Source: a virus
Length of the DNA: 49,863 nucleotides
Direction: 5' to 3' (one strand)
Virus genome (UHGV): UHGV-1522688
This document shows positions 824 to 48,677 of the stretch, piece by piece (within the stretch, counting starts at the first letter, position 1; each line of letters begins with the position of its first letter). The notes under the pieces are model-generated. The model saw only the letters and a program-made list of their open reading frames with translations, ran no database searches and had not been told where the DNA came from. The translations under genes and the position numbers were made by a program.

Positions 824-1053
824 CGTACGAAGCGACAGAGAAAAACATCTGCTTTGAGCGAAAAGTGGCAGTTGAAGACAATCATGAACGATCTATGACT
901 CGATATTTACTTAATTCACTGTTATTCAAAGGGTTAAGTAAAAAAATATTATCTGTCACCTCAGTGCAATGCAATCTAAGGTTTCAAAGAACCCCCCTTT
1001 GAGTACACCGTAAGTTTTAAAATGTGAGGTAAGTTGATTTTACATATTTTCTA

Positions 1054-2124
1054 ATGCATTATCATACGTCCCTTAAAATAAATCATATTACTGAGAAAAA
1101 AATGTCCAACATTAATTTATTCGATGATGTAGTGCCTTTAGAAAAACAACATCCAATATATACAATGATGAAAGAAGAACGCTACAAACCGGAGAGAGAT
1201 GTAATTAATCAATGGGCAAAAGGATTTCAAGACCGAGACAATAAATTTGCTAAAGAATTTCAAACAAGTTTTGAACCTTGCCTATGGGAATTATATCTTT
1301 TTGCCTATCTGAAAGAATTAGGCTTAAGGAGCGACTTTTCATACGACGCTCCTGACTTCGTCGTCAATGATCCAGATTTTTGCATTGAGGCAACTATTGC
1401 ACTTCCAGCACAAGGAGACCTTGGGGCGCATGGTTTCAGTAAGGAAGATATGCCGAGAGATTTTAATAAATTTAATTCTGAAGCATCTATTCGACTTAGT
1501 AATAGCTTTATATCAAAGGTTAAAAAATTAAGATCGAGATATTCTCTACTTCCTCAATGTAAAGAAAAACCTTTTGTAATCGCCATAGCTTCATTCGACA
1601 GACCTTTTGCACACTTTGCAGCAGCTAGGCCCATACTTGCAACATTATATGGCCTATACCATGATGAAGAAGCAACCATTGAATCAGGGTCAAAGAGTAT
1701 AATTTCTTATAACGTCGATGCTGCAGTAAAAAAAGAAAATGTTAATATAGACATGGGGTTATTCTGCACACCTGAATATTCGGATGTAAGTGCTGTGATT
1801 TATAGTAGTTTAGCTACTTGGGGAAAAGTAAGAGCCCTTGCGGACAACCCTTCTGCTCTAACGATTTATACATCATTTACTCCAAAGGAAAACTCATTAT
1901 TTCCTGAAGTTCATCAAGCCTTAAAAAGTGATTATGTAGAACATCTAGCGGATGGGTTATATATTTTACACAACCCATTTGCCAAGCATCCATTGCCTAA
2001 AGAGACACTAAGTCATCCAAGAATAGCGCAAGGTTATATTGAGCCAGATGGATACGTTAATTTTATAGCGCCAGATGATTTTCTTTTATTGCGTTTTTTA
2101 CAATCGTTAAATTTGAAAGAGTAG
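1054..2124 (+). CDS. hypothetical protein, A+T-rich islet gene 1 (possible PD-(D/E)xK-like nuclease core)
   Basis: 356-aa ORF (alternative start at MSNINLFDD, about 1102); helix then 'DAPDFVVNDPDFCIEATIA' resembles a restriction-endonuclease-like strand motif; no family recognised. Confidence 0.5.
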   Translation: MHYHTSLKINHITEKKMSNINLFDDVVPLEKQHPIYTMMKEERYKPERDVINQWAKGFQDRDNKFAKEFQTSFEPCLWELYLFAYLKELGLRSDFSYDAPDFVVNDPDFCIEATIALPAQGDLGAHGFSKEDMPRDFNKFNSEASIRLSNSFISKVKKLRSRYSLLPQCKEKPFVIAIASFDRPFAHFAAARPILATLYGLYHDEEATIESGSKSIISYNVDAAVKKENVNIDMGLFCTPEYSDVSAVIYSSLATWGKVRALADNPSALTIYTSFTPKENSLFPEVHQALKSDYVEHLADGLYILHNPFAKHPLPKETLSHPRIAQGYIEPDGYVNFIAPDDFLLLRFLQSLNLKE

Positions 2125-2283
2125 TAATTATGGTCACATCTAATTACTTTACATAGATACCCACTAGAAAGGGGACTTTTCTTAAAACTCAGCCGTCAAA
2201 GATTTAGAGTGGTTATCTACTGGTATGCTTCCGAATCTGCCAGTGCGGCTGAGTGGATTTCTAGTACCCTCTAGAAGATTTAG

Positions 2284-3132
2284 TTGATTAAAACAGGTCA
2301 TGTATCATCTTCAGAGTCAACATATCGCCAACTGTCTATCATTCCATTGAGGAAAAGTATGTCATCAGAAAATTTTGTCACCTTCTGGCTCGCTAGAGCC
2401 GATCTTCCATACTTTCTTGAACCTCATGAATTTTACGTTTCGGAGGCCAAGCGTAGACTTCTATCGCAGTTTGGCGATTTAGAACAAGAAGCAGAAAGGA
2501 GGGAACAACAGTATTTGGAAGCTACCTCAAAATATTTCGATCCTGATAACGATGATCCAATGGCTGCCTACGAGCAAGCCTACCACGTGGGAATTAATTA
2601 TGTATGGTCGCTTCTGGAGATGCAAAATACCGTGTTGTTGGCATTAACGGCAGGAATGTACCACCAGTTTGATAAAAAACTAAGAGAACACACCATCAAA
2701 GAACTAAGTAACTGGTGCAAAAGAGAATTAATTACTCCCATGATCTGGAATATAACTTTCCATCAGCTTATTGATTTACTCGAATGGATTGGCCTCAAAA
2801 TCAATGGAACCGGATACGGAGAGAGGATCAAAGCCTGTAACTTGGTAGTAAACGTATACAAGCATGGGGACGGGCCTGCGCATCAAACACTATCATTCAA
2901 TCATCCTGAGTACTATCAACACCCTACCGATGTTCGAGGTACGCAGAACATACATGACCATGATGATTTACATGTATCAGAAGAGCAATTTGTAGAGTTT
3001 GCTGACGCAATAACTGAATTCTGGAAAGCAGTTCCAGAGAATTGCTATTACTCAGATCTCAAAGAAGAACCCAAATGGTTGAGTAAAGTCGTAACAAAAT
3101 TCGATAAAAAACAGAAGGGAAATAGGGACTAA
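2284..3132 (+). CDS. hypothetical protein, A+T-rich islet gene 2
   Basis: 282-aa ORF (alternative start MSSENF about 2359) directly downstream of gene 1 on same strand; no recognised family. Confidence 0.5.
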   Translation: MIKTGHVSSSESTYRQLSIIPLRKSMSSENFVTFWLARADLPYFLEPHEFYVSEAKRRLLSQFGDLEQEAERREQQYLEATSKYFDPDNDDPMAAYEQAYHVGINYVWSLLEMQNTVLLALTAGMYHQFDKKLREHTIKELSNWCKRELITPMIWNITFHQLIDLLEWIGLKINGTGYGERIKACNLVVNVYKHGDGPAHQTLSFNHPEYYQHPTDVRGTQNIHDHDDLHVSEEQFVEFADAITEFWKAVPENCYYSDLKEEPKWLSKVVTKFDKKQKGNRD

Positions 3133-3240
3133 TTACCCATCTCAAAACATCAAGTTTGCAGTGCCCTGCTCCCCGTTTATTAGTATGGAAGTTAACAATG
3201 TCTGCTTCTGACACATAACAGCCCTTAAGATGGTAACTCG

Positions 3241-3290
3241 CCGTCATGGGGTGTCGGGGGTCGGAGGTTCAAATCCTCTCGTGCCGACCA
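3241..3290 (+). other. partial tRNA-Pro (3' ~50 nt incl. T-arm, acceptor 3' strand and CCA); integration-site remnant
   Basis: 'ccgtcatggggtgtcgggggtcggaggttcaaatcctctcgtgccgacca' matches the 3' half of enterobacterial tRNA-Pro(CGG) as recalled; the 5' acceptor strand 'cggcacg' and D-arm are absent upstream. Confidence 0.7.
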
Positions 3291-3303
3291 AAAATCCTCG
3301 AAG

Positions 3304-3330
3304 AACCAGCCTGTTACGGCTGGTTTTTTT
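3304..3330 (+). terminator. rho-independent terminator following tRNA remnant
   Basis: 8-bp stem aaccagcc/ggctggtt with 6-nt loop followed by TTTTT. Confidence 0.55.
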
Positions 3331-3420
3331 ATGCCTGTTTTCTGAACGGGGAAGCAACGGGGAATAATTGGGGAAAAACCCCGACACAAAACATCGACTT
3401 TACCGTAAAGTTTCAGCTAT

Positions 3421-3810
3421 TCACATCACTGGGCAGTCATCAAACTCCGCGTTCCTGGCATCATTAATGATGTACGTGATAACACCAAATATTGCGTGTG
3501 AAGAATTATAGCCATCACCGTCTTCTGGCAGCACTTCTCTTCTCCCGTTCTCCAGATTTATCAGGTGGGGCTGAGGGTGAGTTCGGTATCGCTTGATCCT
3601 GAATTCCCCATCTATCGCGCATATCAGCAGCGAGCCATCACAGGCTGAAAGCGACGCGTCCACAACAAGTAGTGCCCCCTGGATTATCCCTTCCCTGAAA
3701 TGTGAACACGATGCCCGCATGAAATAAGTCGCTGCGGGCTGGCTGATTAGCTGTTGATCGAGGGAAATCCTTGTTTCAACGTAATCACTGGCAGGTGAAG
3801 GGAAGCCCAT
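3421..3810 (-). CDS. UmuD'-like protein, encoded without the N-terminal arm (begins at the position equivalent to UmuD Gly25)
   Basis: From internal ATG with GGAGG SD: MGFPSPASDYVETRISLDQQLISQPAATYF... aligns with E. coli UmuD residues 25 onward ([29 protein letters not shown]); C-terminal 'AIDGEFRIKRY...FGVITYII' matches UmuD fold; Lys of the Ser-Lys dyad retained, GDSM motif diverged to CSHF. Confidence 0.8.
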   Translation of the reverse strand: MGFPSPASDYVETRISLDQQLISQPAATYFMRASCSHFREGIIQGALLVVDASLSACDGSLLICAIDGEFRIKRYRTHPQPHLINLENGRREVLPEDGDGYNSSHAIFGVITYIINDARNAEFDDCPVM

Positions 3811-3812
3811 GG

Positions 3813-4055
3813 CTATAGTCCTCCGTTTGGATTGAAAAGCTGAAAGGTACGGTTCTCCCCTTCCTGCGTTGATACATCGCGGAATGATGTCACATACCAC
3901 TCGATCCATTCGTTAGCCTGCTTCATCGTCCAGTTCCAGTTAACCTTGCTCAGTTCCTGGACAAACCGCTGTGTGGTGACGGTCTTCCGGCCATTAGGTT
4001 CTTGCTGTATCGAAGCATGCCAGGCCATTTCAATATCGCTGCGTCGTGGCATCAA
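3813..4055 (-). CDS. hypothetical protein, upstream partner of UmuD'-like gene
   Basis: 80-aa ORF ending 2 nt before the UmuD'-like ATG; not UmuC-like. Confidence 0.45.
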   Translation of the reverse strand: MMPRRSDIEMAWHASIQQEPNGRKTVTTQRFVQELSKVNWNWTMKQANEWIEWYVTSFRDVSTQEGENRTFQLFNPNGGL

Positions 4056-4501: not shown

Positions 4502-6058
4502 TCAATTTTGCTGGCTACCTTTCAGCGTCTCAATCACATTCTTCAGGGAATTGAGTTCAGACATCTGTTCCTTCATCGCTCTGCCCATATAAACCATAGC
4601 GCATGCCATATCGGCCATAATGACATTATTATCAAGGGCAAGGGTATCGTCTTTGAGACCAACCTCAATCTGATGGTCAACATATTCGTTACCGGACTCA
4701 TCCACACCAACAACGTCCTCAAAAACAGGTCCACCAGGCACTATCTTTACGTACTGCGGATCAACTTTAGTCAGATCCTGGGCAATAAGGCCAAAACGCT
4801 GTGTATCCGACCCCTTATACTTAAACATGGTCGGTAACCACTGCATGACACGGTCGAAACTGTCTTTCCCGTCCCGATATTGGATATCTTCTTTTAGATC
4901 GCGGTCTGATGTCGCATTCTTGGCGAACACGTACGATCCCTGCCAGTTTGACCCGGATTCGTTCCATACGTCAGTAGTGATATCACCAGACTGAGGATTG
5001 AATCTGAACATCCTGTGATATCTGGCATCGCCCATAAAATGTAAGACGCCATGTGGCCAGCCATTGGCACCATTAGAAATGAGTCCCAGTGACAGACGAG
5101 TACTCCACCCACCCGATGCAGAAGAACCACCAGAAACGATTGGAGCCCAGCCACCATCATTTCCACCAACAATGGCGGACCAGTAAGGGGTGGTCCATGG
5201 ACCATCAACATCCCCCCAGCCACCCGATCCGCACTGTCCCCAGAAACCACGTGGTGATTGTATAACCCCACCATAACCAGAAAGAAAGTTGAAACGGTAT
5301 GTGTTCGCTCCTGCTCCAAAACTATTCGCGATTAGAGCAATGGCATCCAGATAATTACCCGCACCTCGTATCCCGCCAAACTGATAGAACGAATTCCCCA
5401 TCCACCCCTGCAGCTGGTTCATCATCCAGCCCAGTTCACCATCAACGTTATTCGACGTCAGTAAAATATCCTTCTTGACGCCAGCAGTGCTTTTGACGCC
5501 TGTACCCGACCCACCCGCCACCGAATTGACGCCACGGGTGCCAAGAACACTACCGAACGTAACATCCTGAGAGTTTCCCAAAGTGAGATTATCGCGGGCC
5601 GCATTTTTATCAGGCAGATCGGCCAGGGCCTGGCTTTTCAACAAAGCATTATTGATCTGATCAATAATGCTTTTCCATGATGGTCCTGTAAACTCCGTAT
5701 TGTCAGGAAGCCTGACAGTAATATTGCCGTTCGCAGAGAATAAAAGTTGCCAGTTCTGTTTGTCGTAATTCAGCCCCCGCAGCGCCTCCGTGTTCTGCAC
5801 CACCATTGCGGCAGTAACCATATTCAGCGCCACACGAGGAACAGCTGACCAGGCCGCGCCAGATTGGGTTGGCCCGGTGTAATTGCTGACCAGCGTCAAC
5901 GCTGTACCACTTTCCACGGACTTAACCGGAAGCGTATAGGGAACACCACCGACCGTAACAACAATAAAATCTCCGGCCGCCACCTCAGTGGTAAACGCGG
6001 TCCCGCTGCCAGCGACCGCAGCCGAGTTATTCATCAGGGTTAATGTTCCTGCTGACAT
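4502..6058 (-). CDS. side tail fiber protein with C-terminal intramolecular chaperone (peptidase S74-like) domain
   Basis: 518 aa; Gly/Ser-rich repeats; C-terminal 'SDRDLKEDIQY...RFGLIAQDL...' typical of auto-cleaving chaperone domain of phage fibers. Confidence 0.75.
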   Translation of the reverse strand: MSAGTLTLMNNSAAVAGSGTAFTTEVAAGDFIVVTVGGVPYTLPVKSVESGTALTLVSNYTGPTQSGAAWSAVPRVALNMVTAAMVVQNTEALRGLNYDKQNWQLLFSANGNITVRLPDNTEFTGPSWKSIIDQINNALLKSQALADLPDKNAARDNLTLGNSQDVTFGSVLGTRGVNSVAGGSGTGVKSTAGVKKDILLTSNNVDGELGWMMNQLQGWMGNSFYQFGGIRGAGNYLDAIALIANSFGAGANTYRFNFLSGYGGVIQSPRGFWGQCGSGGWGDVDGPWTTPYWSAIVGGNDGGWAPIVSGGSSASGGWSTRLSLGLISNGANGWPHGVLHFMGDARYHRMFRFNPQSGDITTDVWNESGSNWQGSYVFAKNATSDRDLKEDIQYRDGKDSFDRVMQWLPTMFKYKGSDTQRFGLIAQDLTKVDPQYVKIVPGGPVFEDVVGVDESGNEYVDHQIEVGLKDDTLALDNNVIMADMACAMVYMGRAMKEQMSELNSLKNVIETLKGSQQN

Positions 6059-6071
6059 GGATATCTCCTGA

Positions 6072-6100
6072 ATTAAGATAATAAAAAACCCGCCGGAGCG
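6072..6100. terminator. bidirectional rho-independent terminator
   Basis: stem aacccgc/gcgggtt with loop cgga, flanked by A-run on one side and T-run on the other. Confidence 0.5.
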
Positions 6101-6116
6101 GGTTATTTTTGGTATT

Positions 6117-6356
6117 TCATTGAGGGCAATTCGAACTGGTGAAATTATTTTTATTCACCCATCGCCAGTTAAAGGGATAACCGGCCCTGTACTCAGTCTG
6201 ATTAACAACTTTTTGCACACCGTAAATTTGCACTGACTGGGGCTGTCCACCAAGCACTAACTCAGCCTGACAAACCGGTTTCTGTTTCTCCAGAACAGGT
6301 CCTGAACAGGCTGAAAGCACCAGGCAGACAATAACTGGAATAATTATATTTTTCAT
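6117..6356 (-). CDS. small lipoprotein, possibly Cor-like superinfection-exclusion protein
   Basis: 79 aa; signal peptide with lipobox LSAC; located immediately after tail fiber genes, the usual cor position; function inferred from position only. Confidence 0.45.
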   Translation of the reverse strand: MKNIIIPVIVCLVLSACSGPVLEKQKPVCQAELVLGGQPQSVQIYGVQKVVNQTEYRAGYPFNWRWVNKNNFTSSNCPQ

Positions 6357-6464
6357 TTCGATACCAGAGTTAATTATTTAAACAAAAAATAACCAATGGC
6401 ATTGAATAATAAAAATAGTTTTAATAGATCAATATTCTAAAATTGATCGTTTAAATCGATCAGT

Positions 6465-7139
6465 TTAATCATATGCAGCTGTGTTTATCGCCGTTATCAC
6501 AATTCCACTATTTGTCGTACCGATTGAAGAGCCGCTTGCTGTTGTTGATGTAAGTCCTTTTATTCTCGTTCCCGCACCTTCATTGAAGCAACCTGTACCC
6601 ACATCCACAGACTGAATGATTGGCTGTCCACCAGGTGCCGAACCAGCATGAAGGAGAACAGATCCCAGCCCCATCGGATTTATGGCCCATTTGCCTGCCA
6701 TGTATGTATCAATGTTAAGCCCACCACTTACAGCACCTGGTGAACCAATAGTTGTAAGGTCGCTTAATACCCGGGACTCATTCGTAAGTACCAGTGTCCC
6801 TTCGGCATCCCATATAGCCACCCCCCAGGCAGGAAGCGTAAGCGGATATATGGCAAAAAAATAGGCCTCAAGGACAAAAGCCGATCCCCTGTAATTAGAC
6901 GCATTAACACTGAACGTATTGCCACTTTTTGAAGCTGATATCTTCGCCGGGGCGCTGGTTCGTGCAAATGCAATCCCTCCCTTCTGACCGTCGATAGTAA
7001 CAGACGCCGAAACACTGTTAAAATTCCCCCCAAAAGTTGAGTTTACAGTGACTTTCCGGTAAAGCGTCATTGGTGTGGAATCAGGCGTGATAAAAGGGTT
7101 CCCGTTAGGTAATGAAATCAATGCGCCATATTTAGCCAT
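6465..7139 (-). CDS. hypothetical phage protein (tail-associated by position)
   Basis: 224-aa ORF between J and tail fiber, contiguous with upstream ORF. Confidence 0.5.
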   Translation of the reverse strand: MAKYGALISLPNGNPFITPDSTPMTLYRKVTVNSTFGGNFNSVSASVTIDGQKGGIAFARTSAPAKISASKSGNTFSVNASNYRGSAFVLEAYFFAIYPLTLPAWGVAIWDAEGTLVLTNESRVLSDLTTIGSPGAVSGGLNIDTYMAGKWAINPMGLGSVLLHAGSAPGGQPIIQSVDVGTGCFNEGAGTRIKGLTSTTASGSSIGTTNSGIVITAINTAAYD

Positions 7140-7454
7140 CTACGCAGTCTCCGCAAAAACGATTAACTGCACTTTGACTGCCGGGTAATCATTAATCCCA
7201 TCACTACCTGAAGGCTGTATTGTTATGGTGTTTCCAGATGCAATAATATTTCTTTTATCTGTGTAACTTATTGTCCCTTTATCCTCCAGAGTACCAACCG
7301 CAAAACCGACCTTTAAACCGGGCTCGAGGTTGAACTGGTAGCTTCCCGTTTTCTGACCTAAAGCAAGATCGATGATTCCCACCACGGTTACAGGTTTAAT
7401 GCCATAGTTATTCGGGACACCGTTAGCGTCCCATGTCTGAATTCCCCATGTCAT
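7140..7454 (-). CDS. hypothetical phage protein (tail-associated by position)
   Basis: 104-aa ORF immediately downstream of J. Confidence 0.5.
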   Translation of the reverse strand: MTWGIQTWDANGVPNNYGIKPVTVVGIIDLALGQKTGSYQFNLEPGLKVGFAVGTLEDKGTISYTDKRNIIASGNTITIQPSGSDGINDYPAVKVQLIVFAETA

Positions 7455-10400
7455 CAGAATACCCCTGTTAATTTGCCAATCTGCACGCGGAGAACGCCAT
7501 TGCCATCTTTAACGCTGTAATTCAGATTGGTCATTTTCGTTGCCCCCTCCCCGGCAACAGCCCCATTCATTTCAAACGTTCCGTCTGATTTCATAATGGT
7601 GCCTGTTTGTCCCTGAACATAATTAGCGGAGCGCAGTTCGCCAATTTTTGCCAGAGTGATTTGACTATACTGAATAAAAGCATCGCTGATAAACACCTGA
7701 CCATTAATAGAAGCAAACGGAGAATATTGTGTATCACCGCTGCCACTCATCAGGACGAACTGATTGGCGTTAAAGCCGACACGGGTGACTACCGGCTTAC
7801 CCGCTTCGGCCAGCACGGCAATCGACATCCCGGCGTTATACATCACACCGTTTATTCGAACTCCGGTTTTAAGAGTGTAAATTGCAGATGCCCCGGTCGC
7901 ATCAACCACGGCGGTGAGCTTATCTTCCAGCGCGGCAGTCACATCATTGAACTGCGCCTGCACCTGCGTCGACATTTCAGCCATGGCTTTATCGACCTGC
8001 GCAATGGTCGTTTTAACCACCAGAATATCCGCGCGTACCTCGCCGTACTGCGCCCACTGGTGTTCCACGGTTGCATGGTTGGCCAGCGCGTTCTGCAATG
8101 CGGCTTCGAGATTGGTATCAATGTCGCCAGTCAGGCGGTCACCGTCGGCAGATGTCAGGAAGTCATCAGCAATATCGCCCAGGTAGTCGTCAGCATTCGC
8201 ATTAGATTCACCACGAACCCAGTCGGTCCAGTCACTCTGATTACCAATGCGATCAACCAGACGAGCCCGGTACCAGAACTCCTGACCTGCCTTCAAACCC
8301 AGTTGGGTATATGTGTGTTGAGGATACGGAACTCCTGCAAGCAGCAGAGGATTATCCCCATTTCCGTTTGCTGAATACTGCAGTTCGGTCTGGAGAGTAT
8401 CACCTGTATCCGCCGGAAAGGACCAGTCAGCCTGTATGCCCCAGTTGATTGCTGTGGTGCGCAGACCAACCGGCTTGGGAACATCCCCAGTACGTCCAGT
8501 GAGATGAGTCAGCACAGAAGAGGTCCACAAACTGGACGCTCCACCAGAGTTAATGGCGCGGACTCTCACGAGGTAATCGCCTGAGAAAATCCCGGCGATC
8601 TCTATATTGCGCAAGCCTGTTTCGGGAATGTTGATCCACTCATTATCACCACGTTTCCACTGTGCCTGATACGCGACAATATCCGCCTGAGGTTTCCCGT
8701 TTTTATCTACTGGCGCATCCCAACTCGCAACCATGGTTGCAATACGCTGCCCCTGCCGGACCGAGTCGTAACTGCTAATCGCGATATTCGTGGGCTGGCT
8801 AACCAGGCCTATCGGTAACAGACTAATCGGCGGCGTATCCAGCCGGGCGTTGTTATCAACGGCATCGTACTTAGCCCCGTTGTACTCTGCACCGGTGATA
8901 CTGTAGGTGTTCTCTTCATCGTTAAATGTCAGATTGGTTACACGGAAATACTGGAGGCGCAACTGGCCTGCATCGATAACAAAAATGGCATTAGGTTGTG
9001 GCTCAGCGGTAAAGGCAGTAGCCAGTATCAGTTGCTGGCCGTTAACCGCCTGAATGGTTCTGCTCTCAACGGTACCGCCCAGGGTACGAATCATCAGCGT
9101 ATCACCCGCCACCGCACTCGTGCCGCGATCGGTAGTTACTGACTTCAACCCTGCATCGTAATCAGTAATACGTCCACCATAGACACGCCCAGACAGCCGC
9201 TCATCTGCAAACGCAAATACGGTCCCCGGCACATAAGCGAAGCCATCGAGTCCCGTCTGGACAGTGATAATACGGTCCAGAGAATTGGAGTACACTGCCC
9301 AACCACCCCGGCGCTGAGCTTCGCTTTCACGTGTGCAGCCAATCGCGGTTAGCTGAGTCTGCTTAAACTTGAACTGCTTAACCAGATCGGGAAACATCAC
9401 TGCAGTAGTGCGATCCTGATAGTGGTTATCCGGGTCACTAAAGTTAATCAGCGCTGAGCTATAGCGATTCTTTTCACTGCCGCTGGAATAGGTTGGTTTC
9501 CCGACCACAGAGGCACGGGTGAGGATCTGAAGTTTTGACGTATCCGCAGGCATATCAGAGACAACATTGAACATGTTGTTGCCCCAGAAAGTCATTCCGT
9601 TGAAGCCCGCGGCAATATCTTTAATCACCTGCCAGGCATCAGCCTGGGACTGGATGTAAACGTCAAACATGAAGCGTGGCTCGGTAACGCTTCCGCCTTT
9701 CCCGTCGGGTACCTTCTGGTCGCAGCGCTGGGCGATGCGATAGAGCTCCCACTTATCGAGCATTTCTGGCGTCACGCGGCGCCCAAGACCGAAGCGCGGC
9801 TCAGTCACAACATCGAACCAAATCCACGCCGGGTTATTCGTCCAGCCCCATTTAAACGTCCCGTCCCATGTTCCGCTATAAGTCCGCGCTATTGGATCAT
9901 AGTTCGAAGGGATTCGGATGATGCGCCCCTTCGGCATGCAGGAAATCTTAGGGATGTTGTTGAATGACTTTGCGTTAAAGGACACGTACAGCAGCGCTGT
10001 GTGTGGATATCGTAGGCGAGCATCGATCACCTCAGTAATCGCTTGCACCTGCGTTTTGTTCTGCAGCATCTGGCTGGTGCTGTCATCGGTGTCACGCACC
10101 ACTCGAATTTGCCAGCCAGTGCTGGCTTTGGGAAGATTAATACGGTGGGTTAGTTCATAGAGCGAACTGAGCTTCTCTGTGACGGTTTTAGTCATGACTG
10201 TCGAGTAAGCGCCACCGTCCACCGCAAGGTCAATATGGTACTGAACCGTGGTGCCGACAATATCCCCATCGTTTTCCTGCTGCTGTAACCCAGGGATGCC
10301 AATACGAACCAGCACCGCGTCAATCTGGGTGTTACTCAGTGCGCGGGTCCATGGTGTGGCCTTTGTCAGCGATACGCCAACCGTAGTTTCATTCTCGACT

Positions 10401-10663
10401 GCAGGGAATCCCGGTATTGGTGTCTGTGTCTGTGTGCCAGGCCGGAATTCCCATGACACATTTTCAAAATTCATCGTTCCGTCGGGGTTTCCCAACGGCG
10501 TACCGTCCAGGAATATCCGGGTCGCATCCAGGCCACCAGCAAACTCACCCTCCCCGAGCGCCAGCAGCATGCGGCAGCGCGCCATTGACTGAGCCGAATC
10601 GGGCTGTTCTACAGGTGTATGCTGCTTCTGGCTGCCACCCTTTGCACCAGTGATCACTTCCAT
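7454..10663 (-). CDS. J: host specificity protein J (central tail fiber / tail tip)
   Basis: Start taken at MEVITGAKGGSQKQHTP; long blocks similar to lambda gpJ (e.g. 'IPSNYDP...YSGTWDGTFK', 'DKWELYRIAQRCDQKVPDG'). Confidence 0.9.
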   Translation of the reverse strand: MEVITGAKGGSQKQHTPVEQPDSAQSMARCRMLLALGEGEFAGGLDATRIFLDGTPLGNPDGTMNFENVSWEFRPGTQTQTPIPGFPAVENETTVGVSLTKATPWTRALSNTQIDAVLVRIGIPGLQQQENDGDIVGTTVQYHIDLAVDGGAYSTVMTKTVTEKLSSLYELTHRINLPKASTGWQIRVVRDTDDSTSQMLQNKTQVQAITEVIDARLRYPHTALLYVSFNAKSFNNIPKISCMPKGRIIRIPSNYDPIARTYSGTWDGTFKWGWTNNPAWIWFDVVTEPRFGLGRRVTPEMLDKWELYRIAQRCDQKVPDGKGGSVTEPRFMFDVYIQSQADAWQVIKDIAAGFNGMTFWGNNMFNVVSDMPADTSKLQILTRASVVGKPTYSSGSEKNRYSSALINFSDPDNHYQDRTTAVMFPDLVKQFKFKQTQLTAIGCTRESEAQRRGGWAVYSNSLDRIITVQTGLDGFAYVPGTVFAFADERLSGRVYGGRITDYDAGLKSVTTDRGTSAVAGDTLMIRTLGGTVESRTIQAVNGQQLILATAFTAEPQPNAIFVIDAGQLRLQYFRVTNLTFNDEENTYSITGAEYNGAKYDAVDNNARLDTPPISLLPIGLVSQPTNIAISSYDSVRQGQRIATMVASWDAPVDKNGKPQADIVAYQAQWKRGDNEWINIPETGLRNIEIAGIFSGDYLVRVRAINSGGASSLWTSSVLTHLTGRTGDVPKPVGLRTTAINWGIQADWSFPADTGDTLQTELQYSANGNGDNPLLLAGVPYPQHTYTQLGLKAGQEFWYRARLVDRIGNQSDWTDWVRGESNANADDYLGDIADDFLTSADGDRLTGDIDTNLEAALQNALANHATVEHQWAQYGEVRADILVVKTTIAQVDKAMAEMSTQVQAQFNDVTAALEDKLTAVVDATGASAIYTLKTGVRINGVMYNAGMSIAVLAEAGKPVVTRVGFNANQFVLMSGSGDTQYSPFASINGQVFISDAFIQYSQITLAKIGELRSANYVQGQTGTIMKSDGTFEMNGAVAGEGATKMTNLNYSVKDGNGVLRVQIGKLTGVF

Positions 10664-10718
10664 ATTACATCCATAAAAAAAGCACCCAATTGGGTGCTTG
10701 ATATTCAGAAAGGAGTTT

Positions 10719-11312
10719 TCAGATGTCTTCTGCGACGATGCCAGCACTGATGATGGCGCCGCCAATCTCGCGCTCACCATAAAGAAGCGCGACCGGGTTA
10801 CCCATCGCAAGGGTGTTCACCGAGCCACCGAAGGCATATGAGGGTCTATTGTCAGGATCGTCTCGCCCCTGTAGTCCTTTGGGCTGGGGCGAAAGCATCT
10901 GGTAAATCCCACCAGCCATCATTCCGATACCAGCGGAGACCATACCCGCGCCAATGATACCTGCTGAACCGAACGTCATGCCCGTGACGACGATGCCCGC
11001 CACAACCATGACAGCACCCAATATTGTCTGGAACAAACCCGCTTTTTTTGCCCCTTCCATCACGGGTGCTATGCGAATATCGGTGCTTCCGGCTAGGTTC
11101 TTAAAATCATCCGCGCCAATGTTGCGCCTGCCGCGAAACACCGCGAACGTCATACCATTCTTTTTGGCGTTCAAAAGATAGCTTTCCAGCCCGTCCAGGT
11201 TGATACATAACGCCTTCACGGCTTCCGCTGACGTCTGCACCGCCAGTTTATGCACGCGCCCAAATCGCGCACCCAGCGCACCGTACAATCGAATCGTGGT
11301 TAAGCGCGCCAT
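10719..11312 (-). CDS. I: tail assembly protein I
   Basis: 197 aa, position between K and J, Gly/Ala-rich hydrophobic C-terminal half typical of gpI. Confidence 0.7.
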   Translation of the reverse strand: MARLTTIRLYGALGARFGRVHKLAVQTSAEAVKALCINLDGLESYLLNAKKNGMTFAVFRGRRNIGADDFKNLAGSTDIRIAPVMEGAKKAGLFQTILGAVMVVAGIVVTGMTFGSAGIIGAGMVSAGIGMMAGGIYQMLSPQPKGLQGRDDPDNRPSYAFGGSVNTLAMGNPVALLYGEREIGGAIISAGIVAEDI

Positions 11313-12825: not shown

Positions 12826-13176
12826 TCAGGCATAGACGCCATAGGCGCGCTTAATCGTGAATGTCAGCTCAGCGAATTTGCTGCTGAGTTGGTTTTTACG
12901 CACCGAATCGGTCACGACGCGATACAGACCCATCTCCTCGCCCGGCGGCGTGATGACGAATGCTTTAACGGTATGTGCCAGAAGGAAGTCACGAACAGTA
13001 TTCACTTCTGAGTCAGCGCCCACATGCTTCATCGGTATCTGAATCGCCGTGGAATTAATGCCGTTCTCAGCCACCTGCTCGTAGCCATCACCAAACTGCG
13101 CCGAGCGCACCGTTTGACTGTATTCGACAGCACCCGCGCCGAGTTGCGAGTGCCAGTTGTAGGTATCAACTGCCAT
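12826..13176 (-). CDS. M: minor tail protein M
   Basis: 116 aa; 'FGDGYEQ' motif as in lambda gpM; position. Confidence 0.75.
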   Translation of the reverse strand: MAVDTYNWHSQLGAGAVEYSQTVRSAQFGDGYEQVAENGINSTAIQIPMKHVGADSEVNTVRDFLLAHTVKAFVITPPGEEMGLYRVVTDSVRKNQLSSKFAELTFTIKRAYGVYA

Positions 13177-13369
13177 ATATACTCCATAAAAAAAACCCAG
13201 CCTGAGCTGGGTTAAACATTAGGTTATTGATTAAGCTGATGAAAAATTAACCTGAAATAACATCCTTGAAAAAAGAATTAGTTACTTCACACATATAAAA
13301 TGATGAAATATGCGACACTCCGTCAATATTTTTATCCATCATAGCTAACCAATTCACAGGGATAGTTTA

Positions 13370-14983
13370 ATGAATATTGTGCATTATGCAGCCATTGGAG
13401 CTGTAGCTTTCGTAGTTGTTCTAACAATTTTGGTGATAAACATCATTAAATTAAAGTCAGCCAAGGCTGATGCAGCAGAAAAGGCGGCAAAACTTGAGCG
13501 TTACGCGTCAATCACCAATGCTGAAACAGAAGCTGAACGAATCGTGAATGCAGCTAAGCAAACCGCAGAAGAGTTAATTATTGATTCGCAGAATAACCTT
13601 GACGAGGCAAAAGCTGAAGCAGCCAACACTATTGCAGCCAGTGAAAAAGATGCAAGATCTATAACACAGCGTGCGGAGGATATTCTATCAGATGCGCGTT
13701 TAGCAGCTAAGCGAATGAACGCAGAGGCGCTGACCGCTGTAGAAACACAAAGAGTCAAGCGTGCAGAAATTGAAAAACAGATTGATGAATTGCGTAAATC
13801 CTATCGTGAGAAAAAAATCACTTACGATGAGCTGACGGAAGCCCTGTCAATTTATAAAGATGATATGGAATTTGCTGACATGGGGTTCTATGCACCACAC
13901 TTCGATTTTGATACCTCGGCTAGTTTTCAGGATGCGATCAAGGCATGTCGCGAACGGCAAAAAAATCTGCTACGTGACAAAACTGAATTTGGCGCAATAC
14001 ATTGCCCTACTGAATGGACGGTTGGCGGCTCTAAAAGTGAAGGTCGGAAAATGACCACTCGCGGCATTCAGATGACAGCACGTGCATTCAATGGTGAGTG
14101 TGATGCAGCTATTGCAAACTGCACATTTAAAAACGTTTATCAAATGGAGCAAAGAATTTATAAAGCCTTTGATGCCTTGAATAAGATGAATGAGGTTAAC
14201 CAGATTTACATCAATCGTGCTTTTTTAGATTTGAAGCTGGATGAACTTCGACTTACACATGAATATCGTTTGAAAAAACAAGAAGAACGAGAAGAACAAC
14301 GTGAAATCCGCGCTCAGATGGCTGAGGAGAAGCGAGCTCAAGCCGAAATTGATCGTGCACTTCGAGAGGCTGAAGATGAAGAACGCCGCGCCCAAAAAGC
14401 GTTGGATAAAGCCCGAAAAGAAATGGAATCGAAGCTAGCCCAAATGACAGCTGAGCAAGTTGAGAAACACCAAGCGAAGGTATCCGAATTAGAACATGCC
14501 TTAGAAGAGGCATTGTTGAAAGGCCAAAAAGCTCTTTCTATGGCTCAACAAACTAAACGCGGCCACGTGTACGTTATCTCTAATATTGGTTCGTTTGGTG
14601 ATGATGTTTTTAAAATAGGAATGACACGTCGACTTGACCCTCAAGATCGAGTGGATGAACTGGGTAGTGCATCAGTCCCATTCCTGTTCGATGTTCATGC
14701 AATGATTTTCAGTGAAGATGCACCAACAATGGAAAACATGCTCCACCAGCGTTTCAATGAGCAACGCACTAACCTAGTTAATAAGCGTAAAGAGTTTTTC
14801 AATGTAAAATTAAGCGATATCAAAGATGCTGTGTTTGAGATCGCAGGTAAAGATGTAGATTTTATCGAAACAGCAACTGCTCAGCATTATTATGAAACAA
14901 AGGCAATTCGTAAGCAGAAAGCGGATATCATTTCAGTTGTTCCTCAAGAGGAAAAACTACCTAAATTTGCGGACGCAATATAA
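13370..14983 (+). CDS. membrane-anchored coiled-coil protein with DUF4041-like region and C-terminal T5orf172/MUG113 (GIY-YIG-like) domain; candidate defence/exclusion factor
   Basis: 537 aa; N-terminal hydrophobic helix (AIGAVAFVVVLTILVINII); long Ala/Glu/Lys/Arg-rich helical stretches; C-terminal 'GHVYVISNIGSFGDDVFKIGMTRRLDPQDRVDEL...VPF...LHQRFNEQRTNLVNKRKEFF' matches T5orf172 signature as recalled; opposite strand to the tail operon; A+T-rich. Confidence 0.7.
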   Translation: MNIVHYAAIGAVAFVVVLTILVINIIKLKSAKADAAEKAAKLERYASITNAETEAERIVNAAKQTAEELIIDSQNNLDEAKAEAANTIAASEKDARSITQRAEDILSDARLAAKRMNAEALTAVETQRVKRAEIEKQIDELRKSYREKKITYDELTEALSIYKDDMEFADMGFYAPHFDFDTSASFQDAIKACRERQKNLLRDKTEFGAIHCPTEWTVGGSKSEGRKMTTRGIQMTARAFNGECDAAIANCTFKNVYQMEQRIYKAFDALNKMNEVNQIYINRAFLDLKLDELRLTHEYRLKKQEEREEQREIRAQMAEEKRAQAEIDRALREAEDEERRAQKALDKARKEMESKLAQMTAEQVEKHQAKVSELEHALEEALLKGQKALSMAQQTKRGHVYVISNIGSFGDDVFKIGMTRRLDPQDRVDELGSASVPFLFDVHAMIFSEDAPTMENMLHQRFNEQRTNLVNKRKEFFNVKLSDIKDAVFEIAGKDVDFIETATAQHYYETKAIRKQKADIISVVPQEEKLPKFADAI

Positions 14984-15001
14984 CATTTCAATGACAAATT
15001 T

Positions 15002-15028
15002 AAGGGCGGTTTTTAATCGCCCTTTTAT
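15002..15028 (+). terminator. rho-independent terminator after moron gene
   Basis: stem aagggcg/cgccctt, loop gtttttaat, followed by TTTTATGTT. Confidence 0.55.
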
Positions 15029-15043
15029 GTTAAAAGTCATTAG

Positions 15044-15532
15044 TTACATGTTTTTGTAATAGCCGACTTTAGAATCAAAGTCCTGTTTTGCGAGTGGCGT
15101 TTGGCTTGTCACATAAGTCTCCCAGGAGCTGTACGCCTCTACGAGCGCGCGCTTTTCTTCTGCATCCTTAGTACTCGATTTCATTATTTCAAACACTCCA
15201 GAAGCATTCTCTTTGCGTTTGTTTTTTCTGTTAGCGCCGCAAGTCGCTATTGCATCGGCTACAGAATTATTCCACCCAACCAACTGCAGGATCTCCATTC
15301 TCTTTTGAATCACGAACTGATCCGCAGACGCATTCCGTGCCTGAGTCGACAGGTATTCAGCAAACTCCATTTTGTTCATTGGCACTTTGGAGACTGACTC
15401 AATATTTACGTCACACTTCGAAAGCTCATCATACTTGGCTTGTTTTTGCGCGTTGTTGACTGGACCATTGCCCGCGCACGCAGAAAGAGCCATTGCTAAC
15501 ACCACTGTCGTGAAGACCTTTTTCATTATCAT
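15044..15532 (-). CDS. lipoprotein of unknown function (moron)
   Basis: 162 aa; MKKVFTTVVLAMALSAC lipobox signal peptide; convergent with 13370-14983; A+T-rich. Confidence 0.6.
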   Translation of the reverse strand: MIMKKVFTTVVLAMALSACAGNGPVNNAQKQAKYDELSKCDVNIESVSKVPMNKMEFAEYLSTQARNASADQFVIQKRMEILQLVGWNNSVADAIATCGANRKNKRKENASGVFEIMKSSTKDAEEKRALVEAYSSWETYVTSQTPLAKQDFDSKVGYYKNM

Positions 15533-15626
15533 CCCCTGATTAGTATGGTTTTGACATAATAACCATGGGAGGCATCGGTGTAACCAGGTACGGGTTATAT
15601 TGCCATATCAGAATTTACGACGATGC

Positions 15627-18600
15627 CTATTTTGGCTGGAACTGCCTACCAAGGAGGCCATCACTTCGAGTTGCCCTCATAAGGATCTCCGTCACCTTAG
15701 TTTCTATTTCCTTCCCTAACGCCCGCGCTGCTGCGCCTCCGTCTCCAGATGTGTTAGATGTTGCATTGCCCTTATTATCGACATAAATATCAATGTTGAC
15801 CTGCGGCTGGGCTCCACCTCCACCCTGCGCCCTTACACCAAGTCTTCCAGCAGAATCCCGTGTCAGCGGCATGATGGCCTCTTCACCTGCCTCAGCAAAA
15901 ACTCCACCTTTGGCGAATTTAGATGCCCCTTGGAAGGTGAAATACTGAGGAGAGTCGTAGACGCCATTCACGTACTTACTGAGGCCCGGAGACTCATAGA
16001 CTCCGCCTTTTGCGTTCGGGGTGAATGATGGAACAGCGAATGATTGCCCGCCCCCAGCCGAAGCAACAGAGCCACCACTGATCCACCCCATTGCGGCCTG
16101 CACTGCATAGGCAACCATGAGGCGGTTCGTCACATCAAGGATCATCTTGAGCATGGATTTGCCGAATTCTTTAACTGATGCTTTGCCAGTGGTCATCAGC
16201 TCAGTCAGCATGTCGCCCAAGCCAGTCAGCGTGGAGCTGGCGACGTTTTTCACAGCATCGTATGTGTTAGTGGCAGCGTCCAGATACTCATTCCATCCGC
16301 TTAAAGCACCAGCCTTCCAATCACCGCGAAGCTTATCCTCTTCGGCGTAGTAGTTACGAAGGGCTGCCAGCTCTTTCTCATAGCCAGCATCTTCTAGCTT
16401 TCCGCCACCATTCAGCCATCCCTGACGAAGCTGCGCTTCTTCGGTCATTCGCTGAGCCATACGACTGCTTAAACCTGACCCGCTACGTAACGCCTCAGAC
16501 TTTTCAGCCATCTGCGTTACATACTTATTAGCCTGCTGTGCCAGGCCGTTAATCTTCTGCTGGGCCTCTACTTCTTTGTTCTTCTGATCCACAACCTTCG
16601 CGGCATTCAGAATGGCTTCTCGGCTAGACAGGAGTGACTTCTCCTGCGCGGTCAGTGCGCGGGTTTTGGCAGCCTCGTCCAGTTCCACAAAGCGTGACTG
16701 TTGTTTGCTGAATTCGGTATTTTTGGCGTGAATATCGCCGGTCTGACGCAGGGTTTCGAGGGTTTCCGTTAAGGTCCTTGCCTGCGCCCGGTAGTTCTCC
16801 AGGGTGCGATCGCCAGCATCGAGTGTTGCTTTCGCTTCTTTTGTCTTTTTGGCTGAGTCTTCTGCAAGCTTCGAGACTGCGTTTCTCGACTCGCGGCTCG
16901 AGCCCCCTTCCCCTTTAACGCTGGCACCTCGCGCTTCGGCTTCATAGCTTGCCTGTGCATTAGGCGCAGTGACCCGCTTCCAGAGTTCATCGTAGCGTTT
17001 TTTGTTCGCTGCGATCTCTTTGTCAGCTTCCGCCCCGGCCTTTTTCATAGCCTCAACATCCATGCCGAGGAAGTCGGTTATTGCTCCGCCGCCCGGGATT
17101 TTCTCAGCCCATCCTGCAATGGTCCCAGTAAACTTGGAATCCAGAGAGGTAATGTTGAGGAACAGGTCCTTTATCGAAGCTTCAACCAGGTTGAAAATAT
17201 CGATCACCTGATTTCCCCAGGCGCGGACAGTAATCCCGATATCATCAAAGGAGTCAGATGCTGTTTTCTTCAACCACTGCCAGGACTGCCCAATATTGTC
17301 GGTGGCCCTGTTGGTCTCTTCTGCGCGCTTTGCCATAACGCCAGCAAACAGGTTGATGGCTTCGTTTACCGCCGCCTGCTCCCCCTTCTGCTTACGCAAC
17401 TGGATGATGTGCTTCATCATGGCTTCATCAACAAAGCCATACTGCTCATTCAGGCTGGCCAGCCCTTTCACCGGGTCGCTGACAATCTTGCCGAAGTCGG
17501 ACATCGCCGTTTTGGTGTCACTGCCAGCCTTGCCCATCAGAGTGATGGACGTGGCGATCTGCTTCATCTGGCTGGCGGTATATTTACCAGTGTCATTCAG
17601 CGTAACCAGCGTATCTACGGTGGAACTGATGGATGTATTCGTCTTGCCGGCCACCTCTTCAGCAGCCTCATTGAGCTTCTGCATTGAGGAAAAACCAGCG
17701 CCACCCATCATGATGACCGATCGCGCCACTTGGTCGAATTGCTCGGATGAACTATATGCCGCAGTAGCCAGCAGACCAACCGTACCGACCAGACCTGCCA
17801 GCGCAATAGTGGTTGGGTTAATCATCCCAGCCATGCTGCGGATGTATTCGCCGACGCCAGTGAGCGCCCCCTGAACCCCGCCAAACTGGTCTTTAATCTG
17901 CCCGCCCTGTTGCAGCAGGATCAGGAAAGGAGACTGCCCACCAGCCAGCTGCGTGGCGATATCGGTGAACTGTGCTGGTAGTGTGCGCATTGCTGCGCTG
18001 TACTGGCCGACAGATATACCGGCACGACGCGCCGCAGCCTCCTGGCGAGATAGTGCCTCTGGCAGCACGTCAGCCACGCCAGACAGGCGCTCACGCGTCT
18101 GGTTCAGGATTGTATTGAAGTGCTCGAACTGCGCGCCGTTAATACGCCCCGCTTCGAAGTGTGCCACCAACTGCGCATGCTGCTCATCCAGCGAGTTAAA
18201 CGCGCGGATAGTCGGGTCGATAGAGCCCAGCAGGTTTTTCAGTGCTGCTGATTGTTTCTCGGCAGCCTGGGTCGCGGCCAGTTCTGCCTGGGCGCGCGCC
18301 GCTGCTTCTCCGGTATCCGTCAGTTTTAACCGGGTCTCGTCCAGGATTTTGTTGTAGTGCTGAAAATCATCAGTATCCAGGAAACCTTTGGTCTGGAAGT
18401 TGCGCAGTGCGGCCTGTTGTTCATCCAGCCGGTTCAGCGCCTTGTTAACTGGATCGATATTCTCCAGCAGCCCCTTCAGCGCGATCTGCTGTTCCTTGAT
18501 ACCTTCAGTGCCCTGTTTCGCAGACTCAGCACCAGCACGGAATACGCTATTAAGGTCATCAGCTTTGCCTACGGCACCCGCCGCGGCTTCACCGAGTTTA

Positions 18601-18674
18601 TCCAGCTCGTTGCTGGCTGTTTTCAGGTCAGAAACATCGGCCCGTAAAGTAATCGAGGCGATCTGGTCAGTCAT
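15627..18674 (-). CDS. H: tail tape measure protein H
   Basis: 1015 aa, coiled-coil-rich, position between GT and M. Confidence 0.9.
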   Translation of the reverse strand: MTDQIASITLRADVSDLKTASNELDKLGEAAAGAVGKADDLNSVFRAGAESAKQGTEGIKEQQIALKGLLENIDPVNKALNRLDEQQAALRNFQTKGFLDTDDFQHYNKILDETRLKLTDTGEAAARAQAELAATQAAEKQSAALKNLLGSIDPTIRAFNSLDEQHAQLVAHFEAGRINGAQFEHFNTILNQTRERLSGVADVLPEALSRQEAAARRAGISVGQYSAAMRTLPAQFTDIATQLAGGQSPFLILLQQGGQIKDQFGGVQGALTGVGEYIRSMAGMINPTTIALAGLVGTVGLLATAAYSSSEQFDQVARSVIMMGGAGFSSMQKLNEAAEEVAGKTNTSISSTVDTLVTLNDTGKYTASQMKQIATSITLMGKAGSDTKTAMSDFGKIVSDPVKGLASLNEQYGFVDEAMMKHIIQLRKQKGEQAAVNEAINLFAGVMAKRAEETNRATDNIGQSWQWLKKTASDSFDDIGITVRAWGNQVIDIFNLVEASIKDLFLNITSLDSKFTGTIAGWAEKIPGGGAITDFLGMDVEAMKKAGAEADKEIAANKKRYDELWKRVTAPNAQASYEAEARGASVKGEGGSSRESRNAVSKLAEDSAKKTKEAKATLDAGDRTLENYRAQARTLTETLETLRQTGDIHAKNTEFSKQQSRFVELDEAAKTRALTAQEKSLLSSREAILNAAKVVDQKNKEVEAQQKINGLAQQANKYVTQMAEKSEALRSGSGLSSRMAQRMTEEAQLRQGWLNGGGKLEDAGYEKELAALRNYYAEEDKLRGDWKAGALSGWNEYLDAATNTYDAVKNVASSTLTGLGDMLTELMTTGKASVKEFGKSMLKMILDVTNRLMVAYAVQAAMGWISGGSVASAGGGQSFAVPSFTPNAKGGVYESPGLSKYVNGVYDSPQYFTFQGASKFAKGGVFAEAGEEAIMPLTRDSAGRLGVRAQGGGGAQPQVNIDIYVDNKGNATSNTSGDGGAAARALGKEIETKVTEILMRATRSDGLLGRQFQPK

Positions 18675-47094: not shown

Positions 47095-47108
47095 TGGAGG
47101 ATTTGACC

Positions 47109-48476: not shown

Positions 48477-48677
48477 ATGGATGATATTTTGCTGACGTCA
48501 GACCTGACCAGTCGATACAAAATCTCACGTAAAACCCTTTGGTCATGGCAAAGCACAGACACGATGCCGCGGGGTTTTGCGAAGCCGTTCCCCGCCCCGG
48601 ACTTCCCCGGTAACCCTAACCGCTGGAAGTCGGAGTCAGTCAAAGAGTGGGAAGGTGTGAAACAGCCAATTAACTGA
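48477..48677 (+). CDS. xis: excisionase (AlpA/Xis-family HTH)
   Basis: 66 aa; '[12 protein letters not shown]' HTH typical of AlpA-type; adjacent to integrase. Confidence 0.7.

Follow-up and report, generated by a model that had tools for sequence, protein, structure and literature searches.

A SNIPE (PD-λ-1) homologue carried as a compact cassette beside a phi80 MorF-like lipoprotein gene in a lambdoid tail operon

What is carried by the A+T-rich DNA that separates tail genes M and H in UHGV virus genome UHGV-1522688, and is it likely to protect the lysogen against other phages? In the window, i.e. the whole stretch of 49,863 nucleotides that was analysed, this interval spans 2.45 kb (13177-15626) and has a GC content of 41.6%, compared with 53.8% for genes J to M and 54.5% for H (Table 1). 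The value lies ~2 sd below those of other 2450-bp segments of the same sequence, and lower values occur only around positions 650-3400. In an identical locus (L003), J, I, K, and L are called downstream. A preliminary description of the sequence had reported a visibly A+T-rich insert holding a 537-aa plus-strand gene with its own terminator and a 162-aa minus-strand lipoprotein gene, and the insert and both ORFs were found where it had placed them. The insert is not a single unit: the interval consists of two separately acquired, independent modules, namely a SNIPE cassette of ~1.83 kb and a lipoprotein moron resembling phi80 morF. In megablast searches, the locus matched only M (HK639) and morF (phi80) among phage GenBank records, and among 5,426 complete E. 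coli genomes its sole match was the phi80 morF segment, found in two laboratory strains.

Table 1. Features of the M-H interval and its flanks
Feature	Position	Strand	Evidence or remarks
Minor tail protein M (left flank)	12826..13176	-	PF05939 (4.6e-19)
Terminator-like hairpin directly upstream of M, closing the cargo slot on the tail-operon strand	13194..13213	-	
SNIPE cassette, ~1.83 kb (upstream region, gene, terminator)	about 13216..15043		blastn and alignments; GC 40.5%
SNIPE / PD-λ-1 homologue, 537 aa	13370..14983	+	PADLOC; alignment to E. coli SNIPE; AlphaFold model
Codons of predicted N-terminal TM helix (residues ~6-26)	13385..13447	+	Hydropathy
DUF4041 (PF13250) Pfam core, residues 238-289	14081..14236	+	Pfam (1.2e-18)
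T5orf172/MUG113 (GIY-YIG clan) predicted nuclease domain, residues 398-490	14561..14839	+	Pfam
Intrinsic-terminator-like hairpin 3' of the SNIPE gene	15002..15024	+	10-bp stem with 5 GC pairs, then T-rich tail
MorF-like lipoprotein gene, 162 aa (160 aa if the start is at 15526)	15044..15532	-	Cys19 lipidation site
Promoter-like site of the MorF-like gene	15556..15584	-	-35 GTTACA, 17-nt spacer, -10 TATTAT
Tape measure protein H (right flank)	15627..18674	-	PF06791 (3.7e-54) and PF09718 (3.3e-20); PHROG 24 (1.6e-224)

The sequence of the 537-aa gene places it clearly among the homologues of SNIPE (PD-λ-1), a defence system that is already known. Residues 1-536 of its product matched profile positions 1-495 of 496 in the PADLOC PD-Lambda-1 model PDLC03977 (5e-201), and the second PD-Lambda-1 model, PDLC03976, was also matched (2.1e-178). 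The alignment with E. coli SNIPE (P0104, recognised as the characterised protein by carrying all 9 residues named in PMC13190303) runs from end to end with 49% identity (E = 3e-171). The defence or exclusion function guessed at in the preliminary description is thus borne out at the level of the family, which is an experimentally proven anti-phage system. Its remark that this architecture lacked functional characterisation was mistaken, since PD-λ-1 was found by functional selection in 2022 (Vassallo et al., PMC9519451) and its mechanism has been published under the new name SNIPE (Saxton et al., Nature 2026, PMC13190303).

The single N-terminal TM helix, the long helical regions, and the T5orf172/GIY-YIG-like C-terminus noticed previously were all recovered. 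The Kyte-Doolittle 19-residue maximum of the protein (2.88) falls at residues 8-26 and is followed by K27, K29, and K32, and the TM helix occupies the same place as in SNIPE. In the AlphaFold model, a helix at residues 3-44 precedes long helices at 51-170, 283-355, and 361-396, and the domain order (TM helix, stalk, globular DUF4041, helices, and α/β domain) matches the published one. Scanned with Pfam at relaxed settings, the N-terminal 174 residues yielded sub-threshold matches only (DUF948, DivIVA, and V-ATPase G) and no adapter domain; this region fits a generic membrane-anchored helical stalk. The globular DUF4041 region occupies residues ~184-282 of the model, and DUF4041 scored 67.2 bits (cutoff, 27) in the whole protein and 70.8 bits (8.5e-20) in the isolated region. 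In newer Pfam releases, PF13250 is named 'SNIPE' and is so listed for this exact protein. The C-terminal domain matched T5orf172 (residues 398-490; 57.7 bits, 1.9e-15) and MUG113 (residues 414-488; 65.6 bits, 6e-18), both of which, like DUF4041, exceed the Pfam gathering thresholds, and we take it to belong to the GIY-YIG clan as assigned by Pfam. This link rests on the clan assignment and on an HHpred result in PMC13190303. Comparison of our C-terminal profile with unverified N-terminal sequences of I-TevI and UvrC by hhalign was non-significant, with probabilities of 0.1 and 4.5%, respectively, from an alignment that was too shallow (Neff 1.6). No solved relative was found among PDB sequences by phmmer with the 537-aa protein or by an HMM of its C-terminal domain, and a PDB fold search with the full-length model returned only coiled-coil/axonemal noise (best E = 0.3), a search made uninformative by the elongated shape of the model (pTM 0.36). 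Catalytic residue E414 of SNIPE maps to E455, which is invariant in 37/37 homologues, as are Y401, R420, R421, H443, N468, N471, and E475; the invariance of these catalytic-domain residues among proteins sharing 49-84% identity indicates purifying selection. From the positive-inside rule and the PhoA/LacZα data obtained for the homologue (PMC13190303), the protein is predicted to have one N-terminal TM helix and an otherwise cytoplasmic chain (N-out/C-in).

SNIPE consists of a TM anchor, DUF4041, and a GIY-YIG nuclease and cuts siphovirus DNA at injection, engaging the tape measure protein (TMP); it is siphovirus-specific, interacts with TMP, and has no effect on prophage induction, and an E414A mutation abolishes defence (PMC13190303). 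PD-Lambda-1 homologues are active in Streptococcus thermophilus as well. By analogy, the 537-aa gene very probably encodes a prophage-borne member of this family that acts as an injection-stage superinfection exclusion system and that arrived as a ~1.83-kb cassette. At the site where a siphovirus injects its genome, DUF4041 would engage the incoming TMP and DNA, and the predicted nuclease would cut the DNA before infection begins, while the membrane tether would hold the nuclease off the chromosome. In a lysogen, rival siphoviruses would be excluded and the resident prophage would be unharmed, because SNIPE acts only during injection. A consensus scan upstream of the gene found no credible sigma-70 promoter, the sole plus-strand match overlapping the start codon; for this reason, we infer rather than observe its expression in the lysogen.

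The 537-aa protein and SNIPE share the arrangement of a TM helix, helical stalk, DUF4041, long helix, GIY-YIG-clan nuclease domain, and C-terminal tail (...FADAI) in one polypeptide, and identity rises to 67% in the DUF4041 core and likewise in the nuclease domain. Each gene resides in a lambdoid prophage (L005 for the characterised E. coli SNIPE) and is oriented against the genes around it. They differ in site, i.e. the H-M slot of the tail operon here and the replication/nin region for E. coli SNIPE, and in host, which here is not E. coli (0/5426 genomes), the nearest relatives being found in Kluyvera and Citrobacter. HK97 gp15 (Cumby et al. 2012, as cited in PMC13190303) is reportedly a small non-enzymatic inner-membrane protein that blocks DNA injection by superinfecting phages. 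It shares with the 537-aa protein the character of an inner-membrane product of a tail-cluster moron adjoining the tape measure gene, and with SNIPE a TMP-dependent block to DNA entry; however, gp15 blocks injection without an enzyme, whereas SNIPE destroys the DNA by means of a nuclease, and the two are unrelated in sequence. Compared with SNIPE, the stalk of the 537-aa protein is 37 residues longer (171 versus 134 residues ahead of the GFY motif), and identity falls to only 28% (27/95 aligned positions) over SNIPE residues 1-100, which belong to the N-terminal stretch described as associating with ManYZ (PMC13190303). The TMP-specificity positions W257, E264, K305, and I308 of SNIPE are replaced by R294, L301, Q342, and L345, respectively; in SNIPE, the W257R substitution confers a gain of function against the Bas14 TMP (PMC13190303). 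Given the diverged N-terminal region and the changed specificity positions, the target range of SNIPE is not transferable to the 537-aa protein, whose own target range and partner proteins are putative.

Relative to related phages that carry the MorF-like gene alone, the SNIPE cassette is an insertion. In one of these (L098), which has ~94 bp at the cassette site, homology ends just past the hairpin at ~13215 and restarts at 15044 with the stop codon of the MorF-like gene. Alignments with relatives revealed neither repeats flanking the cassette nor a target duplication. The hairpin upstream of M is conserved in L098, L053, and Kluyvera sichuanensis and is a terminator in the HK639 annotation. 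The 78 related phages compared, whose M shows 82% identity or more, have H-M gaps of 51 to 4403 bp. Of these phages, 3 carry SNIPE and 11 the MorF-like gene, SNIPE being absent from 8 of the 11; K. sichuanensis has SNIPE without the MorF-like gene. This comparison with relatives lacking the insert, which the preliminary description had suggested, gave clean cassette breakpoints and agrees with its view of the lipoprotein gene as an independent element. The same cassette occurs in several phages and in K. sichuanensis at 92-97% protein identity. The slot contains dozens of unrelated cargos in the relatives and is rich in small lipoproteins and membrane proteins; the H-M interval is a hypervariable cargo slot, or hot-spot. 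When ten further cargo proteins that recur in the slot were scanned with PADLOC and Pfam, a single Fic/DOC match was the only result. The SNIPE gene would thus have come as a self-contained unit and adjoined an older, independent lipoprotein moron of the MorF type.

The lipoprotein is 61% identical to phi80 MorF over its full length and matches PHROG 8179 (1.1e-47; residues 3-162, positions 1-159 of 159). Its lipobox, LSAC, lies at residues 16-19, and C19, C40, and C98 are invariant in the family alignment. By the Lol rule, Ala at +2 predicts sorting to the outer membrane, and the MorF-like protein, which has this residue, is probably an outer-membrane lipoprotein. Its promoter-like site, which is also conserved in L098 and L082, lines up with the -35/-10 annotated for phi80 morF. 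Phi80 MorF, as annotated (FN582354, annotation only), and the MorF-like lipoprotein both have a lipoprotein signal peptide and conserved -35/-10 elements and each constitute a self-contained moron within a lambdoid tail operon, but morF lies between I and J in phi80 and the MorF-like gene between H and M here.

Like Cor and Llp, the MorF-like protein would be a small outer-membrane lipoprotein encoded by and expressed from a prophage, and it may block a phage receptor or another envelope step and so exclude superinfecting phages as they do. This reading is possible but, in our judgement, rather doubtful. The predicted outer-membrane sorting, the conserved promoter of its own (for phi80 morF, a terminator of its own is annotated as well), the restriction of the family to Enterobacteriaceae prophages, and the abundance of other small lipoproteins and membrane proteins in the H-M slot of relatives all favour it. 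However, the mature protein, a helical bundle of ~140 aa (model pLDDT, 85.5), has no detectable relationship to Cor or Llp: homology to Cor (PHROG 1119) is confined to the signal peptide (residues 3-50; E = 0.003), with no stretch passing alone. The protein had no PADLOC match, and its model matched only generic helical bundles in PDB and BFVD (E > 0.4). A literature search on MorF function found nothing relevant. Moreover, phi80 already carries Cor for FhuA blocking, and a role in host fitness, e.g. Bor-like serum resistance, is equally possible.

The position of SNIPE beside the tape measure gene and an envelope lipoprotein gene might be non-accidental, the two products forming a two-layer entry barrier at the outer and inner membranes, or the SNIPE variant being tuned to TMP_2 tape measures of the lambda type while the resident phage's TMP co-evolves so as to escape it. 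We regard this idea as improbable. The variant features behind the notion of tuning are the longer stalk and R294 at the W257 specificity position. If TMP co-evolution were true, the phage would be able to shut out rivals and also to enter hosts that bear SNIPE.

It is similarly unlikely that the 537-aa gene is a relic or variant without protective effect, i.e. passive cargo that is inactive or that targets phages absent from this host. Near-identical PD-Lambda-1 homologues may be active or completely inactive, as in two S. thermophilus proteins that are 98.5% identical but differ completely in activity; divergence has affected the TMP-interface positions as well as the N-terminal adapter region, and the gene has no clear promoter upstream. 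Nevertheless, the ORF is intact, its catalytic-domain residues are invariant in the 37 homologues, and the cassette has been kept with little protein divergence in several phages and K. sichuanensis. An abortive-infection toxin, in which infection frees or activates the nuclease so that host DNA is degraded and the cell killed, is very unlikely. The nuclease can attack host DNA, since SNIPE becomes toxic and cleaves the chromosome once its TM helix is removed; yet cells infected in the presence of SNIPE survive and grow, which marks direct defence and contrasts with the PD-λ-3 abortive-infection control, and labelled phage DNA is cleaved during injection (PMC13190303). Still less credible is a selfish GIY-YIG/T5orf172 homing-endonuclease element that spreads through cuts at empty H-M junctions. 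GIY-YIG-clan domains are common in phage homing endonucleases, and the cassette is a discrete 1.83-kb insertion with clean boundaries, but the TM anchor, the 120-residue stalk, and DUF4041 are foreign to such enzymes, and the similarity to a proven defence protein is full-length. The edges lack visible repeats or target duplications, and the dozens of unrelated cargos in the slot suggest recombinational shuffling rather than homing. Finally, although both genes lie inside the tail operon and adjoin the tape measure gene, their sparse distribution (3/78 and 11/78), an H-M gap as small as 51 bp, the opposite strand of the SNIPE gene, and the atypical GC content of both rule out that either is a conserved part of tail structure or assembly.

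With injection-stage exclusion by a SNIPE-family protein as the preferred reading, the locus is of modest importance: it shows SNIPE moving as a compact ~1.8-kb cassette into a tail-operon slot of Kluyvera/Citrobacter-type lambdoid prophages, where it adjoins a gene for the protein class that SNIPE senses. In the published model, stalk length and the DUF4041 surface set the target range, and the 537-aa protein, with a stalk 37 residues longer and Arg at the W257 position, provides a natural variant for testing it. The H-M slot is a reasonable hunting ground for new entry-blocking factors, because many of its cargos, the MorF family among them, are uncharacterised small lipoproteins or membrane proteins recognised by no defence database.

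The window holds a lambdoid prophage with identifiable integrase, RecE/RecT, and tail fibre genes, and its late tail genes are encoded on the minus strand. Genes M and H are separated by 2,450 bp with a GC content of 41.6%, compared with 53.8 and 54.5% in the flanking tail genes. Every element that the preliminary description placed in this interval is present, i.e. both ORFs, the terminator, the lipoprotein signature, and the low GC content. The hairpin upstream of M is retained in related phages regardless of cargo, is annotated as a terminator in the HK639 record, and probably insulates M against moron transcription in the lysogen. Gene J was called mechanically at 7454-10810 (minus strand; 1118 aa, TTG start), overlapping the end of gene I by ~90 bp; translation probably begins at an internal ATG instead, because J is called as 1069 aa in the identical locus on a 71-kb metagenome contig (L003).

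Features of the prophage and of the compared loci (window coordinates unless a locus is named)
Feature	Position	Strand	Remarks
SRAP/YedK-type SOS-response-associated peptidase	152-823	+	2e-50; near PD-T7-5 gene
356-aa ORF, PD-T7-5 homologue	1054-2124	+	PADLOC E = 3.9e-102, positions 1-340 of 346
UmuD-like S24 peptidase	3421-3909	-	1.8e-09; near PD-T7-5 gene
Tail fibre	4502-6058		
Protein M	12826-13176	-	PF05939
Terminator-like hairpin, then T-run	13194-13213	-	immediately upstream of M start codon
537-aa ORF (SNIPE homologue)	13370-14983	+	
Terminator-like hairpin	15002-15024		3' of 537-aa ORF
162-aa ORF (MorF-like)	15044-15532	-	LSAC lipobox; convergent to 537-aa ORF
Promoter-like site of MorF-like gene	15584-15556	-	GTTACA, 17 nt, TATTAT
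Tape measure protein H	15627-18674	-	PF06791 + PF09718
RecE/RecT	44164-48149		
Integrase	48670-49863		
SNIPE with all nine published residues	L005 (Logan ERR10358452 contig) 5395-6897	+	
117-aa lipoprotein (VSGC lipobox) + 90-aa ORF	L006 7737-8353	-	Kluyvera sichuanensis H-M junction
Recurrent 130-aa TM protein	L034-L113, just upstream of 6001		H-M cargo; 23 loci
Recurrent 138-aa lipoprotein	as above		17 loci
Other lipoproteins	as above		LSGC and LTGC lipoboxes
Fic/DOC protein	as above		4 loci; Pfam 9.5e-12
Bro-N-like proteins	as above		

The 537-aa protein has a single strongly hydrophobic N-terminal segment (residues about 6-26, KD 2.88) and long predicted helices (H51-170, H283-355, and H361-396 in the AlphaFold model). 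A Pfam search returned DUF4041, T5orf172, and MUG113, each well over threshold, bearing out the earlier reading of a T5orf172/GIY-YIG-like C-terminus, and the PADLOC library matched the protein end to end with PD-Lambda-1 (PDLC03977, E = 5e-201). PD-λ-1 was obtained in a functional selection by Vassallo et al. 2022 (PMC9519451); its mechanism was established by Saxton et al. (Nature 2026; PMC13190303), who gave it the name SNIPE, so the earlier premise that this architecture lacked functional characterization was mistaken. We took P0104 (500 aa, 975 member sequences) as the characterized E. coli SNIPE because every one of the nine residues that the paper names is present in it. Its full-length alignment with the window protein (49% identity, E = 3e-171) pairs the catalytic E414 with E455, and Y401, R420, R421, H443, E455, N468, N471, and E475 of the window protein are invariant among 37 homologues. 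In the AlphaFold model (pLDDT 76.9), the domains follow one another as published, and in a newer Pfam release PF13250 carries the name 'SNIPE' for exactly this protein. It is a new, uncharacterized member of a known, mechanistically understood defence family and would be labelled as such in any run of PADLOC or DefenseFinder.

SNIPE cleaves λ DNA during, not after, injection, is associated with ManYZ and the tape measure protein, protects against siphoviruses and not against myoviruses or podoviruses, and leaves prophage induction unaffected; its defence is lost on E414A mutation or DUF4041 deletion, and without its TM helix it attacks the chromosome (PMC13190303). The best explanation, which we consider highly probable, is that the 537-aa protein is a SNIPE-type nuclease acting at the injection stage, which the prophage would use for superinfection exclusion of other siphoviruses and which would be harmless to its own prophage because only entering DNA is attacked. 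The anti-phage or exclusion function predicted earlier from the sequence alone thus appears correct, given the end-to-end PD-Lambda-1 match and the identity to P0104. Orientation, terminator, and homologue behaviour suggest expression in the lysogen; a scan for a promoter of this gene found no convincing candidate.

The differences from E. coli SNIPE fall where family variation has been placed (PMC13190303). Residues 1-100 of SNIPE share only 28% identity with the window protein, and the region before the GFY motif comprises 171 residues rather than 134, the 37 extra residues lying inside one confident 120-residue helix of the model. Positions with specificity-changing mutations also differ (W257 to R294, E264 to L301, K305 to Q342, and I308 to L345), R294 being the same change as the gain-of-function mutation W257R; the target range is therefore not transferable. 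The tape-measure-specificity columns vary across the family, whereas nuclease residues are fixed. In S. thermophilus, two PD-Lambda-1 homologues with 98.5% identity have completely different activity. An inactive or differently targeted variant is nevertheless less likely than an active SNIPE-type nuclease, as the ORF is intact and its catalytic-domain residues are invariant. An abortive-infection toxin is likewise less likely, and so is a homing endonuclease, given the match to PD-Lambda-1 over the whole protein.

The locus does not derive from E. coli (present in 0/5,426 complete genomes), and the closest reference genome is K. sichuanensis, with a SNIPE homologue of 92% identity. In total, 80 IMG/VR loci with an M protein at least 82% identical were collected. 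In 78 of these, M and H are both present, and 51 to 4,403 bp (median, 1,433 bp) lie between the H stop codon and the M start codon, with dozens of unrelated ORF families in the gap. SNIPE is present in 3 of the 78 loci; 11 carry the MorF-like gene, which in eight is not accompanied by SNIPE. In L098, which has the MorF-like gene only, homology to the window stops at ~13215, just past the conserved hairpin, and restarts at the MorF-like stop codon (15044), ~94 bp replacing 1.83 kb. In K. sichuanensis (L006), the SNIPE cassette occupies the same position, and a 117-aa lipoprotein and a 90-aa ORF replace the MorF-like gene; its tape measure protein diverges as well, in the central part. In HK639, three other unknown genes occupy the slot. 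The insert described earlier is thus real but consists of two independent modules rather than one, and HK639-like tail modules have a recombinational cargo hot-spot at their H-M junction, which rules out a structural role, such as that of a tail component, for either gene. Among 10 representative cargo proteins, none matched PADLOC and eight had no Pfam match. The gene for the characterized SNIPE is likewise carried by a lambdoid prophage (L005), but there it sits in the replication/nin region, on the strand opposite to its neighbours, with a Bro-N/P22_AR_C gene on one side and the O/P replication genes on the other.

The 162-aa lipoprotein shares 61% identity from end to end with MorF of phi80, annotated as a moron lipoprotein between I and J with its own promoter and terminator; the promoter-like site lines up with the -35 and -10 elements marked for phi80 and is kept in related phages. 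Citrobacter proteins are 98% identical to the lipoprotein. Members of this small family come only from Enterobacteriaceae prophages and are all annotated as hypothetical. C19, C40, and C98 are invariant; position +2 is occupied by Ala, from which the Lol sorting rule predicts an outer-membrane location. Modelling gave a confident helical bundle (pLDDT 85.5, pTM 0.76) with no significant fold match in PDB or BFVD, and the PADLOC scan gave none. Similarity to Cor is confined to the signal peptide. A literature search for MorF function found no functional study; a role in envelope exclusion is plausible but unsupported.

The PD-T7-5 gene, without a Pfam match, is the most A+T-rich in the window (35.8% GC) and lies past the tail-fibre end of the prophage; with it, the prophage has two known single-gene defence systems.

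The remaining interest is limited. The 537-aa protein, encoded next to the tape measure gene, is a SNIPE that varies naturally in its stalk and specificity positions, MorF represents a lipoprotein family that is still uncharacterized, and the H-M cargo slot is rich in small envelope proteins that databases fail to recognize.
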